A stretch of DNA of 64,000 bases from Candidatus Latescibacterota bacterium (GTDB lineage Bacteria; Latescibacterota; UBA2968; UBA8231): NCBI GenBank assembly GCA_965204725.1, contig OZ242005.1:1984001-2048000 (forward strand). The letters are read 5' to 3'. The translations under genes and the position numbers were made by a program. A model generated the notes under the pieces. The model saw only the letters and a program-made list of their open reading frames with translations, was not told where the DNA came from and searched no databases. This document shows, in pieces, positions 27,870 to 33,646 of the stretch (position 1 is the stretch's first letter; each line of letters starts with the position of its first letter).

Positions 27870-28817
27870 CTACTCGGCTCGGTCTAACAGGAGCCTAAAG
27901 GCTTCGAGGCTGGGCACCTGTATGGCCGCCCGATGCAACTGCTTGAGACGCGGCACATCGTCGGTGGCCTCAATGCGAGCGACCAACGGATCCGACGCAG
28001 CCAGCCCAAAGCGAATCTCTAGCACCTCAAGCAGAGCTTCAATGGTGCGTTCTCGGCCCCCTCGCTCGATGCCCTGCTCAATGCCCTGCTCAATGCCCTG
28101 CTCGATGCCCTGCTCAATGCCTTGCTTAATGCCCTGCTTAATCCCCTTTTCCGTGAAATACTGCGCTACCGACGACTCGTACATGGTCTCCTCCTCGATG
28201 ATGGTCATAATCGTCTCTAAGTTATACACCAGCCCGCTTAACATCGCAAGATCGGCCAGATAGTTCGCCTTGCGTCTCTCGTCCATCGGCACCTGTTGCG
28301 CCCGGTTGACACACTGGCGCAACCACCCCTCGGCATCGACGCCGGCGGGCGGTTGCATCAACGGCGCAAACGGCAGCAAGCCGGAAGGTCCGGCGTCGAG
28401 GATGCGTTGACCGTCGATCTCAATCAGCCGGATGACCTTGTATTGCACCAAGACGCGATAGCCGTGCCGCTCTTGGACATAGTGCCCTGGGTCATTCCGG
28501 CCAGCGTCTGGGCGCAGGTAGATGACGTTGGAATAGATGGGCCGGTTGTGCTGTTCAATGCCGCGTCCGATATAGCCGATCATGCGGCGCGGCATGGGGG
28601 GTTTGCTGTCGGTGGTTTGGAACTCGTGGTGGACCAGCACCTCCTCGCCGCCGACGTGGACGCGAATGAGGCTATCGGTGCGGTGGGTTTCGGCGGTGGG
28701 CTGCTCGGTATCGACGACGCCGAGGATTCGGATGTCGTCTTGTTGGAGGGCGAAGCGGGCGAAGTCGGCGGGGTAAGTGTGGATGAGGTGTTTGGCGATG
28801 GAATCGAATTCGGCCAT
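27870..28817 (-). CDS. Rpn-family nuclease, copy 2
   Basis: Near-identical to copy 1; 7 tetrapeptide repeats. Confidence 0.8.
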   Translation of the reverse strand: MAEFDSIAKHLIHTYPADFARFALQQDDIRILGVVDTEQPTAETHRTDSLIRVHVGGEEVLVHHEFQTTDSKPPMPRRMIGYIGRGIEQHNRPIYSNVIYLRPDAGRNDPGHYVQERHGYRVLVQYKVIRLIEIDGQRILDAGPSGLLPFAPLMQPPAGVDAEGWLRQCVNRAQQVPMDERRKANYLADLAMLSGLVYNLETIMTIIEEETMYESSVAQYFTEKGIKQGIKQGIEQGIEQGIEQGIEQGIERGGRERTIEALLEVLEIRFGLAASDPLVARIEATDDVPRLKQLHRAAIQVPSLEAFRLLLDRAE

Positions 28818-28863
28818 GAGCCTTGCCTTGGTTGCGGGTGAGAGGGGGTGGTATGTGCAACTG

Positions 28864-28878
28864 GCAAGAATCGTGCCA
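28864..28878 (-). promoter_or_regulatory. sigma54 promoter of rpn copy 2
   Basis: TGGCACGATTCTTGC on the minus strand. Confidence 0.75.
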
Positions 28879-28964
28879 CGGCGGCGGTTCAGAGGGGCGG
28901 GGCGTGGATGGGCGGCGTGGGAGTGTGGCGAAAAGGGGACAGGGGTGGGACGTTGGGGGAAAAA

Positions 28965-29045
28965 CTGGATTGCCGCGTGCGCGGGAATGACGGAAGGCTT
29001 AGGACGACGCAAGAACTCGTCATTCCCGTGCAAGCGGCAATCCAT
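28965..29045. repeat. inverted REP pair (CGTCATTCCCGC..GCGG(G/C)AATCCA family)
   Basis: CTGGATTGCCGCGTGCGCGGGAATGACG ... CGTCATTCCCGTGCAAGCGGCAATCCAT. Confidence 0.8.
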
Positions 29046-29132: not shown

Positions 29133-30056
29133 CTACTCGGCTCGGTCTAACAGGCGTCCAAAGGCGTCAAGGCTGGGCACCTGTATGGCCGCCCGATGCA
29201 ACTGCTTGAGGCGCGGCACATCGGCGGTGGCCTCAATGCGAGCGACCAACGGATCCGACGCGGCCAACCCAAAGCGAACCTCTAGCACCTCAAGCAGACC
29301 TTCAGTGGCGAGTTCTCGGCCCCCTCGCTCAATGCCCTGCTCAATGCCTTGCTCGATGCCCTGCTTAATCCCCTGCTTAATCCCCTTTTCCGTGAAATAC
29401 TGCGCTACCGACGACTCGTACATGGTCTCCTCCTCGATGATGGTCATAATCGTCTCTAAGTTATACACCAACCCGCTCAACATCGCAAGATCGGCCAGAT
29501 AGTTCGCCTTGACGCCCTCGTCCATCGGCACCTGTTGCGCTCTATTCACACACTGGCGCAACCACCCCTCGGCATCGACGCCTGCGGGCGGCTGCATCAA
29601 CGGCGCAAACGGCAGCAGGCCCGAAGGTCCCGCGGTGAGGATGCGTTGACCGTCGATCTCAATCAGCCGAATGACCTTGTATTGCACCAAGACGCGGTAG
29701 CCGCGTCGTTCTTGGACGTAGTAGCCCGGGTCATTTCGGCCAGCGTCTGGGCGCAAATAGATGACGTTGGAATAGATCGGCCGGTTGTGCTGTTCAATGC
29801 CGCGTCCGATATAGCCGATCATGCGGCGCGGCATGGGCGGTTTGCTGTCGGTGGTTTGAAACTCGTGGTGGACCAGCACCTCCTCGCCGCCGACGTGGAC
29901 GCGAATGAGGCTATCGGTGCGGTGGGTTTCGGCGGTGGGCTGCTCGGTATCGACGACGCCGAGGATTTGGATGTCGTCTTGTTGGAGGGCGAAGCGGGCG
30001 AAGTCGGCGGGGTAGGTGTGGATGAGATGCTTGGCGATGGAATCGAATTCGGCCAT
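29133..30056 (-). CDS. Rpn-family nuclease, copy 3
   Basis: Near-identical to copies 1 and 2; 5 tetrapeptide repeats. Confidence 0.8.
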   Translation of the reverse strand: MAEFDSIAKHLIHTYPADFARFALQQDDIQILGVVDTEQPTAETHRTDSLIRVHVGGEEVLVHHEFQTTDSKPPMPRRMIGYIGRGIEQHNRPIYSNVIYLRPDAGRNDPGYYVQERRGYRVLVQYKVIRLIEIDGQRILTAGPSGLLPFAPLMQPPAGVDAEGWLRQCVNRAQQVPMDEGVKANYLADLAMLSGLVYNLETIMTIIEEETMYESSVAQYFTEKGIKQGIKQGIEQGIEQGIERGGRELATEGLLEVLEVRFGLAASDPLVARIEATADVPRLKQLHRAAIQVPSLDAFGRLLDRAE

Positions 30057-30102
30057 GAGCCTTGCCTTGGTTGCGGGTGAGAAGGGGTGGTATGTGCAAT
30101 AG

Positions 30103-30117
30103 GCAAGAATCGTGCCA
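30103..30117 (-). promoter_or_regulatory. sigma54 promoter of rpn copy 3
   Basis: TGGCACGATTCTTGC on the minus strand. Confidence 0.75.
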
Positions 30118-30347
30118 TGGCGGCGGCTCAGAGGGGAGACGGGGGATCGGCGGCGTGGGTGTGTAGCGAAAAGGGGACAGGCGTGGGGCAACATAAAAAC
30201 AAGGCCCCGGAGGGATTTACCAAAAAATACAGCATTCATACATTGGTTTATGTTGAACAACATCACAAGAAATGGCACCGTCAATGGAAACGGGAACTCA
30301 TAGCGCGGCAGATTTTGCATATAAGGCGTCATTTGTATGTTGCGTAT

Positions 30348-30530
30348 TCCTTTCAGCTAGGCCACTCTGAAAGGGCCGCGTGCGGGGCGCGTCGTCCGTC
30401 ATTGGGTGCGCCGGCACGTCCGTGCCGGCGGCACCGTGCGGGAGTAAGACACCCCTCACGCTGAGTTGTCGCTCCGAACCGATACAAGGGCACAAGGCCC
30501 GTATTACAAGTGGGGAGGACAGCACCAGTA
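30348..30530 (+). ncRNA. putative bridge RNA in the IS110 left end
   Basis: 5' hairpin CCTTTCAG..CTGAAAGG; target loop with CGTCATT (30397-30403) and GCGGGA (30438-30443); donor loop with ACCGATAC (30478-30485) and TACAAGT (30505-30511); boundaries approximate. Confidence 0.75.
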
Positions 30531-30556
30531 TCCATTATAACCAGGAGGCTATTCGC

Positions 30557-31510
30557 ATGAAAGTTATGGCCGGTATAGACGTAGGAAAGAGGAGCTTGGA
30601 CGTGTCGGTAGCGGCTGGTCCGGCGCGTCGATTTGACAACACGCCTGCGGGGCGTACGGCCTTGGTGGAGTGGTTGGAACGTCAGGGGGCGACCGAGGTG
30701 GTGTGCGAACCGACCGGGGGCTATGAGCGGCCTCTGGTGCGTCGGGTGCAGGCCACGGGATGGCCGATCCACCTAGTGCATCCCAACCGTGTGCGCCACT
30801 TTGCCCGGGCGGCGGGCAACCACGCCAAGACCGACGCGCTGGACGCACAGATGCTGGCGCGGTATGGGATGGCCTTCGAGTTGCCGCGTCCGCTGGCCAA
30901 AGAAGCCGACCGAGAGGTGGTACAGGACCTGCTGCGTCGGCGCAAGCAGTTAGTCAACCAGCGCGTACAGGAGCGTCATCGGCTGGACCAAGGGCAAACC
31001 GAAGGGGCGCGCATCTCTATCGAGCGGCACCTCCAATGGCTCGACGAAGAGATTAGCCAGCTCGACGAAGCCTACCAGCAGGCGTTGGCACACAGCGTCT
31101 CATTGGCCGAGGCCGCCGCCCTCTACCGCAGTGTACCGGGCGTGGGTGCGTTGACTGCGGCGACGCTAGTGGGGTATCTGCCGGAGTTAGGGCACTACAG
31201 CGGCAAGGAGGTGACCTCGTTGGTCGGGCTGGCTCCGTGGGCCAACGACAGCGGCCGACAGCAGGGGTATCGCTCGATCCGGGGCGGACGAGGCACCGTG
31301 CGGAAGGTGTTGTACTTGGCGGCCTTGGCCGCCATCCGCTGCAATGACGACCTCAAGCGGTTCTATCAACGACTGTGTACCCGGGGCAAGACCGGCAAGG
31401 TGGCCTTGGTCGCGGTAATGCGGAAGCTCCTGCTGGTGCTCAACGCTATTGCCCAGCGAGGCTCCCCGTGGGTCCAACACCCCACCCCAGCAGGCCACAA
31501 AAAGGCTTGA
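30557..31510 (+). CDS. IS110-family DEDD transposase/recombinase
   Basis: GIDVGK, CEPTG, KTDALD, SVPGVG, GLAPWANDSG, ALVAVMRKL; SD AGGAGG. Confidence 0.93.
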   Translation: MKVMAGIDVGKRSLDVSVAAGPARRFDNTPAGRTALVEWLERQGATEVVCEPTGGYERPLVRRVQATGWPIHLVHPNRVRHFARAAGNHAKTDALDAQMLARYGMAFELPRPLAKEADREVVQDLLRRRKQLVNQRVQERHRLDQGQTEGARISIERHLQWLDEEISQLDEAYQQALAHSVSLAEAAALYRSVPGVGALTAATLVGYLPELGHYSGKEVTSLVGLAPWANDSGRQQGYRSIRGGRGTVRKVLYLAALAAIRCNDDLKRFYQRLCTRGKTGKVALVAVMRKLLLVLNAIAQRGSPWVQHPTPAGHKKA

Positions 31511-31527
31511 CCCGCAACACAGATACT

Positions 31528-31640
31528 CCCGCGCAAGCGGGAATCCAGTGTTCTTTCAGGGGAGGACGCTTTTATGGATTCCCGCGTTCGCGGGAATGAC
31601 GAAAAATAACGGACATGACGAAAAATAACGGACGAAAAAA
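31528..31640. repeat. remainder of the target REP, its inverted partner and a 19-bp tandem repeat
   Basis: CCCGCGCAAGCGGGAATCCAG ... TGGATTCCCGCGTTCGCGGGAATGACG; ATGACGAAAAATAACGGAC x2 at 31596-31633. Confidence 0.75.
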
Positions 31641-31669
31641 TGCGAATCGACGCGGCTGTTGACAGATGA

Positions 31670-33646
31670 ATGCTAATGCCTGAGTTGATGCGCTCCGTCA
31701 TCGAATGGCTCGCCCGGTTCTGGCGCGACCGCTTCCCCCTGCTCATCGTCCTTATCGCCGGGCTGGGCACCGCCCACATCCTCGTCCGCACCGCCACTTA
31801 CGGCGCGGCCGTCAGCCACGAATCCACAATCCACCTTTCTACGGCCCTGAACTTCCTCGCGGGCGAGGGCTGGCGGTATTTCACGGGCAGCCCGATGATA
31901 GGATGGCCGCCCTTGTTCCCCCTGCTGCTCGCGGTCGGCGGTTGGGTCGGCATCGAGCCGCTAGAGGCGGGTCGGTGGGTCAACGCCATGGCCTTTGGGC
32001 TGACCATCCTCGCCGCGGGGCTCTGGCTACACTCAAATCTCCGGTCGCGGCTGCTAACGCTGGCCGCCACCGCAATCATCGCGGCCTCCCTGCCCTTGAG
32101 CGATTGGGCACCCCACATCAAGACCGACACCCTCTTCTTCCTATTCCCGCTCCTCGCCTTGGTCCAACTGGCGTCCTTCCTCAGCCGCAGGACGACCGCG
32201 TCCCTGCTGTGGGCAGCGGTTTTCACCGCGCTGGCCGCCCTGACCCGCTGGCCGGGCGTGGCCCTAATCGGCACCGGCGTCCTGCTGCTTCTGCCCCTCG
32301 CCCGGTGGAAGCAGACCCTCGTCTTTGGTGCGATCTCGTCTGTGCCCTTGCTGGCGGTATTGGCGCGGAATTGGGCGGCCACCGGGCACCTGACCCGGGT
32401 AACAGGGCATAGAACAGCGCCTTCGGGGCAGTCCCTATCCGCTGGGCTAAGCCAGACCGTCGAGGTATTCCGCGAGTGGATCGTCCCCCCCAACGCGCCG
32501 GATGGGGTTGCGTATCTGCTGTGGCTGGCGGTCGCAACGGTCGTCCTCGCCAGCGTCGCGGTCCTCCTGCGCGCCGCCCGAATGCACCGCGACAACCCAA
32601 AGGCCGCGCCGGCGTATTTCCGCTTGCAGCCGGCGCTCCCATTCGGGGGATTCGCCGTGGCTTACCTCGTATTCATGGTCGTAGTTGTGCCCCTCACGGT
32701 TACTCAGGGCATCGACAGCCGCTACCTCCTGCCGATGTACGTGCCGCTGCTGTTGACGGCCGCGTTCTTGCTGGATCGGTTCCTGTCCATGGAGTCTGCG
32801 GGCTGGATGAAGGCCGCCCGCTACGGGCTGGCGTCCCTCGTCGTGCTGGCCTCCCTCGCCCACGTCCGCTTCTCAGCAGAAAAAAACCTCATTCTTACCG
32901 CCCAAGCATGGCGAGCCGGATACGAACAAGACTGGACGTACAATATCGCCGCTTGGCAACAATCCGAGACCCTGAATTACTTGCGGGACAATCATATAGA
33001 GGGCAGAATTTACAGCAACAACAGAGCGCTTGGTTGGTTTGCCAATAGGTCCGCCCCGGGCAAGCACCGCGGCATTCCGCGCAAGAAGCAGTGGGCCGAG
33101 ATGGAGGCCGGGGCGCACCTCGTTTGGTTTGATAAGTTTTATAACCGAGCTTTTATCGGCCACGACGACACAGACCTCCGCGTCCTGCCCAGCGTGGAAA
33201 TCGTGGCCGAACTGGCCGATGGCGTGGTGTTCCGCCGCACGGCCGCCGAACCCTTCGACGCAGAGAGGCACCGCGCCCGGAGACAACGCTATGTGGAACA
33301 ACTCATCCAACAGGCCGACGAGCAGGTGATCCGCGCTGGCTGGGGCGTGTATCGCACGGGACGTACGCTGATCTACCGCAAAGAGCCGTGCGCTCCGGCG
33401 GACGTGCAGGCAAAGTTCGTCTTGCACGTCGTCCCGGCCGATCGGGCCGACCTGCCAATCCACCGCAAACGGCACGGCTCTGAAAATTTCGACTTCTATT
33501 TCTACTGGCGCGGCGAGCGAGTTGACGACCAGTGCATCGCAATCATCCGACTCCCGGCCTACGCCATCGGCCGCATCCATGTCGGCCAGTGGATCTCCGC
33601 CGAGGACCGCACCGTCTGGGAAGCGGAGTTGCCGCCGCGCCGATGA
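31670..33646 (+). CDS. GT-C glycosyltransferase paralogue 9 (1 module)
   Basis: Same motifs; loop 1 reads HES (Glu). Confidence 0.8.
   Translation: MLMPELMRSVIEWLARFWRDRFPLLIVLIAGLGTAHILVRTATYGAAVSHESTIHLSTALNFLAGEGWRYFTGSPMIGWPPLFPLLLAVGGWVGIEPLEAGRWVNAMAFGLTILAAGLWLHSNLRSRLLTLAATAIIAASLPLSDWAPHIKTDTLFFLFPLLALVQLASFLSRRTTASLLWAAVFTALAALTRWPGVALIGTGVLLLLPLARWKQTLVFGAISSVPLLAVLARNWAATGHLTRVTGHRTAPSGQSLSAGLSQTVEVFREWIVPPNAPDGVAYLLWLAVATVVLASVAVLLRAARMHRDNPKAAPAYFRLQPALPFGGFAVAYLVFMVVVVPLTVTQGIDSRYLLPMYVPLLLTAAFLLDRFLSMESAGWMKAARYGLASLVVLASLAHVRFSAEKNLILTAQAWRAGYEQDWTYNIAAWQQSETLNYLRDNHIEGRIYSNNRALGWFANRSAPGKHRGIPRKKQWAEMEAGAHLVWFDKFYNRAFIGHDDTDLRVLPSVEIVAELADGVVFRRTAAEPFDAERHRARRQRYVEQLIQQADEQVIRAGWGVYRTGRTLIYRKEPCAPADVQAKFVLHVVPADRADLPIHRKRHGSENFDFYFYWRGERVDDQCIAIIRLPAYAIGRIHVGQWISAEDRTVWEAELPPRR

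Follow-up and report, generated by a model that had tools for sequence, protein, structure and literature searches.

The element and its recombinase

The window analysed here is a stretch of 64,000 nucleotides from the genome of a Candidatus Latescibacterota bacterium (assembly GCA_965204725.1, contig OZ242005.1, positions 1,984,001 to 2,048,000), and the subject of this report is an IS110-family insertion sequence (IS) that occupies positions 30334-31527 of it, 1,194 bp on the + strand. The element is seated within a repeat of the repetitive extragenic palindrome (REP) type, CGTCATT|CCCGCGMAAGCGGGAATCCAG, which it interrupts at the bar. It is made up of a non-coding left end of 223 bp, an open reading frame (ORF) for a recombinase of 317 aa, and a right end that runs 17 bp past the stop codon. 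The first letters are TGTATG, at 30334, and the last nine are ACAGATACT, at 31519-31527. There are no terminal inverted repeats, and the element is bounded by TT at its left and CT at its right, two cores that have only the T in common. The features are collected in Table 1.

Taken together, the anatomy of the element, the matches between its predicted guides and its flanks, the covariation seen in relatives, the kept catalytic residues and the presence of the same target at each copy point to an IS110-family element of the IS110 group that would move by bridge-RNA-guided recombination, a reading to which we give a probability of about 0.9.

The recombinase matches two Pfam domains, PF01548 (DEDD_Tnp_IS110; 2.2e-22) over residues 5-144 and PF02371 (Transposase_20; 5.3e-16) over residues 189-271, and scores 206.9 bits against the NCBIfam model NF033542, 'IS110 family RNA-guided transposase', for which the cut-off is 140. 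Among solved structures, the best sequence match to residues 5-305 with phmmer is the ISCro4 recombinase (PDB 9T56; 6.9e-37), a likeness by protein alignment alone, and the IS621 recombinase is also matched, as a distant relative (3e-35). In the phmmer alignment to chain A of 8WT6, the columns of D11, E60, D102, D105 and S241 of IS621 hold D8, E51, D93, D96 and S232; these columns were counted by hand, and the chain numbering of 8WT6 equals the numbering of the paper +2. An earlier note on this DNA, made from the letters alone, had assigned the element to the known IS110 bridge-RNA class, and the Pfam and NCBIfam matches, the catalytic residues and the layout of the left end all agree with that assignment.

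Table 1. Features of the element and of the repeat that it interrupts, by position in the window.
Feature	Position	Strand	Basis
Left half of interrupted REP, GGCGTCATT: left target GGCGTCA and target core TT	30325..30333	+	Sequence; CGTCATT flank also at other own-genome copies
Right-donor end, TGTATGTTGCG, holding a -10-like hexamer TATGTT (30336-30341)	30334..30344	+	Left end conserved in relatives
5' stem-loop of predicted bridge RNA, CCTTTCAG / CTGAAAGG	30349..30374	+	Fold; helix 1 with 88.4% of cells paired and 2 pairs changed on both sides
Predicted target-binding loop module: base stem 30378-30387/30452-30461, internal loop, top hairpin 30405-30435	30378..30461	+	Fold; helices 2-4, 7 pairs changed on both sides
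Predicted left target guide TCCGTCATT, same sense as left target and TT	30395..30403	+	Sequence comparison; includes CGTCATT 30397-30403
Predicted right target guide GCGGGAG (30438-30444), then handshake TA (pairs with donor positions 6-7, TA)	30438..30446	+	Sequence comparison; handshake by eye
Predicted donor-binding loop module: base stem 30465-30475/30514-30523, internal loop, top hairpin 30488-30500	30465..30523	+	Fold; helices 5-6
Predicted left donor guide ACCGATACA, against left donor and core ACAGATACT; mismatches at positions 3 and 9	30478..30486	+	Sequence comparison
Predicted right donor guide TATTACAAG (30502-30510), then handshake TG (pairs with target positions 6-7, CA)	30502..30512	+	Shuffle test; handshake by eye
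Ribosome-binding site AGGAGG, 8 nt upstream of ATG	30543..30548	+	Sequence
Recombinase gene, 317 aa, DEDD RuvC-like and Tnp domains; D8, E51, D93, D96, S232	30557..31510	+	Domain profiles, alignment
-35-like hexamer TTGACC in right end, overlapping the stop codon	31507..31512	+	Sequence; same position in relatives
Left donor ACAGATA and donor core CT	31519..31527	+	CT at 22/22 unique right junctions
Right half of interrupted REP, CCCGCGCAAGCGGGAATCCAG, hairpin CCCGC/GCGGG	31528..31548	+	Sequence

Predicted fold of the left end

The minimum free energy of 30346-30535 is -88.6 kcal/mol (z = -3.59), a value equalled by one of 200 shuffles, and within the predicted target loop lies the hairpin GCCGGCACG-TC-CGTGCCGGC, at 30410-30429. 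The structure was tested on an alignment (A3) of 12 left ends from five genomes, with 44 stem pairs modelled. Paired cells came to 91.0%, as against a shuffle mean of 85.2% and 45-56% in slid controls, and none of the 500 shuffles reached as high; ten pairs were changed on both sides across the 12 left ends, a number equalled by 22 of the 500. RNAalifold, when given eight close left ends, pairs the left guide with the right guide inside each loop. These pairs were judged to be a by-product of the palindromic target and of the short inverted repeat at the donor, and were therefore omitted from the model. The results support a left end with the layout published for the IS621 bridge RNA, namely a 5' hairpin followed by two stems that each carry an internal loop, although the covariation of the structure is better regarded as supporting than as decisive, given a small and related sample and a structure that was derived from the window.

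Guides and handshake positions

The strings to which the earlier note had drawn attention are all present, with CGTCATT at 30397, GCGGGA at 30438-30443, the hairpin described above, ACCGATAC at 30478 and TACAAGT at 30505. Its reading of CGTCATT as the left target and of GCGGGA as the reverse complement of TCCCGC is borne out by a target guide pair that matches at 14 of 16 positions, and its matching of the second pair of loop strings to the donor halves by a donor pair that matches ACAGATA-CT-TGTAT at 13 of 16. A look through the main text of PMC11208160 did not turn up the donor string that it had given for IS621. Guide by guide, the left target guide agrees with the left flank and TT at 7/9 positions here and with the commonest REP subtype at 9/9, the right target guide matches the reverse complement of CT+CCCGC at every position, and the donor guides agree with the circle junction at 7/9 and 6/7 positions, TACAAG in the right donor guide being the reverse complement of CTTGTA. 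The right donor guide skips one U, which recalls the discontiguous pairing described for IS621.

A set of 2000 shuffles of the left end (223 bp), with dinucleotides preserved, served to assess how likely such matches are by chance. The score of the target pair was reached by 16 shuffles and that of the donor pair by 13, and none reached both together. Handshake positions were read by eye, without statistics; the UA of the target loop faces the donor TA, and the UG of the donor loop faces the target CA, in agreement with the handshake rule given by Hiraizumi et al. (2024).

The REP target and other copies in the genome

The REP consensus is CGTCATTCCCGCGMAMGCGGGAATCCAG, and the two flanks of the element, when joined, make one copy of it; the genome holds 71 full-length matches. 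The string GTCATTCCCGC occurs 124 times in the genome, and the repeat agrees with a REP in being a short, many-copy imperfect palindrome with a conserved stem-loop. Sites of the form CGTCA-NN-CCCGC number 122 in the genome, with NN being TT in 95 and CT in two, that is, 95 empty CGTCATTCCCGC sites vs two CGTCACTCCCGC sites, and the full 14-mer TCCGTCATTCCCGC is present at 37 of the empty CGTCATTCCCGC sites. Within the window there are eight REP matches at <=1 mismatch, where 2.16 would be expected.

Seven matches to the element were found in its own genome, with 92-97% identity among copies. The second full copy (C1:149752-150946) is 97% identical, with a length difference of 1 bp and a gene that is split by a frameshift, and in the third (C1:4480804-4481663) an internal 330 bp are replaced by 16 bp and the left tip has a 2-bp deletion. 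Each copy has CGTCATT on its left, and CCCGCG... on its right wherever a right end exists; the other genomic copies, which the earlier note had proposed to check for the same REP, thus have the same ends and the same target. Among the 146 sites of CTGGATTCCCGC, the other arm of the REP, there were no junctions in this genome, and these sites share ATTCCCGC with the target. Positions 1-6 of the left target therefore appear to decide both the site and the orientation of insertion.

Relatives and covariation of guides with flanks

The nearest named records are metagenome-assembled genomes of Candidatus Latescibacterota, at 77% protein identity (genome-contig protein scan, five loci). Of the 168 genomes in the phylum set, 10 gave a match at E <= 1e-40, and left-end DNA is found in 6 of 76 family genomes, all from one genus. 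A distant-mode search of the element DNA against 5,426 complete Escherichia coli genomes gave no match. A protein scan of metagenomes gave four loci at 23-34% identity, which were not used.

In six distant elements (L019, L017, L020, L018, L021 and L012; 32-45% identity) both the flanks and the loop sequences differ from those in the window, and the two match each other. When nine bridge RNAs were compared with nine sets of flanks, the best score in each row of the table fell on the row's own target or on one of the same class, with a single tie. The donor side behaves likewise, in that donor-guide positions 5-7 read ATA, TTG or TAT (three classes) exactly as the own left donor does. At position 3, guide and donor are A/A in the elements of genomes G141 and G125, and C (guide) vs A (donor) in the genome of the window and in G118; in G145, G stands in the guide of the left-end copies and in the donor of right-end fragments from other places in the genome. 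The first handshake base also tracks position 7 of its partner, by eye, being U-A here, C-G in the clade of 40-45% identity and A-T in L012. In these comparisons the predicted guide positions of diverged relatives covary with the relatives' own flanks and ends.

Relatives in G118 with a changed left guide, GTGGAT, occur with GTGGAT flanks, although the register of this target is uncertain because one T is ambiguous at the junction. The palindromy of the REP raises another explanation for the matches of the target loop. Being palindromic, the REP makes the target loop resemble a REP with a larger hairpin, and the reverse complement of the right target (GCGGG) is the repeat's own 3' stem arm, so that CGTCATT ... 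GCGGGA, which is REP-like, might reflect the past capture of a REP copy by the left end and not guides at all. Relatives with non-REP targets have other sequences at both loop positions, matching their own flanks, and the donor loop likewise matches the ends of the element; together with the pairing of GTGGAT guides and GTGGAT flanks in G118, this makes such a capture very improbable.

As a separate observation, the left-target-guide variant TCCGTGGAT is present beside TCCGTCATT in one genome, among four loci of G118 (L042, L047, L051 and L054). The guide variants GTCATT and GTGGAT and the two flank types occur there in mixed pairings, with one element per type at the other's flank, and all these copies contain stop codons. 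The mixed pairings could be explained by bridge RNAs that act in trans or by copies recombining with each other, and are hints at most of either.

Orphan left ends and stubs

Some copies consist of little besides a left end. Two orphan left ends, C1:5015047-5015241 (L005) in this genome and L052 in G145, hold the whole bridge-RNA region and then pass into unrelated sequence, with no recombinase gene. Three shorter stubs were also found. The first (C1:3366070-3366104, - strand, L006) has 35 bp of left end and finishes ...GGCCACT-CT|CCCGC. The second (C1:1854876-1854909, + strand, L007) has 33-34 bp and finishes ...GGCCA-CT|CCCGC, with four bases that fit either side; the c7 joint could alternatively come from this kind of 4-bp microhomology. 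The third (L056, G145:C13:1172881-1172950) is 70 bp long and breaks at the DNA coding for the left target guide, GGGTCATT, which is joined to CCCGCGAACGCGGGAATCCAG.

All three stubs have the normal CGTCATT left junction and stop exactly where the right end would meet the CCCGC of the REP. On the strength of this shared, exact right breakpoint, they look like deletions made by the recombinase, from an internal pseudo-site that resembles the left target to the true right junction.

Target and donor cores

Junctions were surveyed in six genomes, giving 27 left junctions (26 unique flanks) and 27 right junctions (22 unique flanks). The core is TT in 20/26 unique left flanks, AT in four, CT in one and TA in one. 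The four AT cases comprise an offset that stems from a 2-nt deletion (copy c3), a flank lacking one T and, in G118, a pair of GTGGAT sites; the single TA is copy c5, which carries an extra A. On the right, CT was found at 22/22 unique junctions. The counts indicate that the target gives T and the donor C at the first core base, and that every junction retains the base present in its left half. The guides differ at the same base, since at position 8 the left target guide reads U, as in the REP, and the right target guide G; one relative in G145 has C in its left guide.

The earlier note had presented the element as a natural specificity variant with a TT/CT core mismatch. The mismatch is real, and the description as a specificity variant is correct but ordinary. 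In IS621, top strands are cut between positions 9 and 10, 3' of the core, so that the exchanged strand carries its own core (PMC11208158), and the first core base is less conserved, TT cores being able to work (Hiraizumi et al., 2024, PMC11208158). A difference between TT and CT is what this cleavage point and this variable base would predict, and is for that reason unsurprising. For the CazIS110-1 element (bioRxiv 10.1101/2025.10.25.684509) and in the 'half-match' work on IS621 (bioRxiv 10.64898/2026.08.31.748434), a top-strand-driven transposition of copy-out type is described from experiments. Junctions that carry the top-strand core of the left half, known here from genomic footprints only, fit that model and are what those results would predict. 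Positions 6-7 of IS621 also differ between target and donor and give the same information. The pattern is thus a tidy natural case, explained by known mechanics, and no new principle.

It might be argued that there is no core mismatch to explain, if the crossover shared by target and donor were a single T (position 9) and position 8 belonged to the left arms (target ...CAT, donor ...TAC). In accord with this, the base at left junctions stays T and that at right junctions C, the latter without exception, and the left target guide has T at position 8 (CGTCATT in 8/12 left ends) where the right target and right donor guides have G; in the structures of IS621, as given in PMC11208158, protein contacts fix T9 but not C8. 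The guides on the right side nevertheless both cover position 8, as they do in IS621, with G opposite C/T, so that two of the four guides read this position as core. The single-T crossover and a two-base core are not separable by sequence alone, but we regard the former as improbable and retain a core of two bases.

A further proposal, which we put forward tentatively as somewhat less probable than its opposite, is that the lineage may be a natural split-core system, with a TT target, a CT donor, U at position 8 of the left target guide and G in the right guides, whose genomic footprints may record the natural reaction, and in which the stubs would be products of partial-match excision with the guide-coding DNA as a decoy. 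The junctions keep the core of the top-strand left half, as expected if only the top strands decide the product, and one of the stubs has a deletion that begins at the coding DNA of the left target guide, a built-in copy of a target half-site.

Proposed cycle

By analogy with IS621, the cycle would begin with an excised circle in which the right and left ends are joined. The -35-like TTGACC lies 15 nt from the right tip and the -10-like TATGTT (30336-30341) 2 nt inside the left tip, so that only in the circle would the two hexamers stand at a spacing of 17 nt, as read from the sequence; a TTGAC-type hexamer is found at the same place in most relatives. Transcription from the left end would then give an RNA of ~180 nt that has a 5' hairpin followed by two internal loops, and its donor loop would read the circle junction ACAGATA-CT-TGTAT. 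Top strands would be cut by the 317-aa DEDD/serine recombinase on the 3' side of the core, which has two bases, and then exchanged. The G of the right target guide could wobble-pair with T8 of the target before exchange and form a full pair with C8 of the donor after it. With each left half keeping its own core, the products would be the left junction ...GTCA-TT-TGTAT and the right junction ACAGATA-CT-CCCGC. Transcription, RNA binding and recombination by this element are all inferred from the analogy.

Evidence against the reading, and possible loss of activity

Several observations weigh against a working bridge-RNA element. With regard to the RNA, further pair types were no more frequent across the 12 left ends than in shuffles (228 of 500 reach the observed value), the covariation of the structure is modest because close relatives are few and related to one another, and the model has an advantage over the slid controls in that it was derived from the sequence of the window itself. 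An Rfam 15 scan of 29800-32000 (E <=10) returned no bridge-RNA model, and Rfam may hold none; the three matches that it did return (one CRISPR repeat and two long non-coding RNA models, E 0.58-7.2) are far under their gathering scores and irrelevant. In the clade of 40-45% identity, matches of the left guide reach only 6-7/9. The left donor guide has C at position 3, where the own left donor has A, in all copies of this genome, and is mismatched at position 9 as well, whilst Durrant et al. (2024, PMC11208160) report that IS621 in general has a poor tolerance of mismatches in its donor guides. Lastly, the window copy is the only one in this genome with an open recombinase frame, and the only one that passes the family cut-off.

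Some of these points would also fit an element that is by origin a bridge-RNA IS and has since become inactive in this genome, its guides fossil and its copies old. The frame is open in just one of three long copies, the copies are similar and not identical, the left donor guide disagrees with its own donor at position 3, and the contigs of four sequencing runs gave no circle junction, although contigs cannot show absence. The window copy, on the other hand, retains the open 317-aa frame and all five catalytic residues, the ribosome-binding site, both promoter hexamers and both guide pairs, and the 37 perfect 14-nt targets are still present. Inactivity is therefore unlikely in our judgement, though it deserves to be taken seriously, and an element that may still move by its bridge RNA is the reading that we prefer.

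Comparison with known systems

The closest described parallel is IS621 of Escherichia coli (PMC11208160, PMC11208158; PDB 8WT6-8WT9), and on what these accounts give, the likeness extends from the protein, with the same two domains and catalytic residues, to the RNA, which is encoded by the left end, is ~180 nt long and has a 5' hairpin, a target loop and a donor loop (predicted here). The 9-nt left guides read the bottom strand and the right guides the top strand, handshake guides of two bases are present, the promoter is split over the circle junction and the target is of REP type. Differences lie in the target, CGTCA-TT-CCCGC here vs ATCAGGC-CT-AC, in a right target guide of 7 nt vs 4, in a left end of 223 bp vs 191 bp, and at the first core base, where here the target has T and the donor C, and the left target guide has U and the right one G.

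Insertion of IS110 elements into REPs has been described for ISPpu10 and ISPpu9 of Pseudomonas putida and for other family members, which are REP-specific and insert in one orientation beside a GC-rich stem-loop (Tobes and Pareja, 2006, PMC1525189; bioRxiv 10.64898/2026.03.19.712850; see also PMC12288879); for ISPpu10, the REP hairpin has been proposed as a structural check. According to these sources, the element described here is alike in being an IS110 element within a REP, but differs in phylum, REP sequence and guides.

An uncultured phylum on which few studies exist, represented here by sponge-associated Latescibacterota, thereby contributes a bridge-RNA IS in which the predicted target, donor, guides and handshake positions are all legible from sequence. 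The element also offers a natural case of a first core base that differs, with the guide for that base differing across the same loop, and this example may aid the design of guides for cores other than CT. The stubs and orphan left ends are cheap genomic evidence on the side-products of excision. The current understanding of the IS110 bridge-RNA class is unchanged.

Surrounding repeats, contigs and neighbouring genes

A second REP in inverse orientation lies 50 bp to the right of the element (31577-31602), and a head-to-tail duplication of ~19 bp, with ATGACGAAAAATAACGGAC present twice, follows at 31595-31636. A REP variant with a second hairpin nested in the loop (CCCGCGAAAG-AACGTCACCCCGTGCCCCGACACGGGG-CGGGAATCCAG) was seen in the right flanks of L074 (own genome), L066, L068 and L077 and of the stub L006, and recurs in several genomes of the genus. 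The left side of the REP is also included in a longer repeated unit, ...GAAATGTTGATCGGCACGGTCTTTTTTGC-N-TAT-N-AGGCGTCATT, which is common to several loci and genomes of the genus.

Contigs from Logan for runs X1, X3, X4 and X5 were compared with 29900-32000. Loose contig ends fall at 30313, in the longer repeat unit to the left of the REP. Four joints were found, namely 30332>31527 and 30333>31530, both of which have sides just 20 letters long, 30363>31525, and 30794>31125 (with 16 letters between). Excision at this locus was rejected as their source, as they fit empty REPs, stubs and the internally deleted copy elsewhere in the genome. Over 31533-31603, the REP, depth rises to as much as hundreds of times the depth on either side, which would be expected where a repeat has many copies. 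The runs that contain the element come from eight studies and carry sponge or marine metagenome labels.

For the neighbouring ORFs at 29133-30056 (-) and 31670-33643 (+), no Pfam family was found. To the left of the element, the ORFs 27870-29045 (-) and 29133-30332 (-) are tandem paralogues, with a common core that starts MAEFDSIAKHLIHTYPADFARF... and a GI[EK]QGIEQ repeat tract near the C-terminus, and their mechanical N-terminal extensions run across REP copies.

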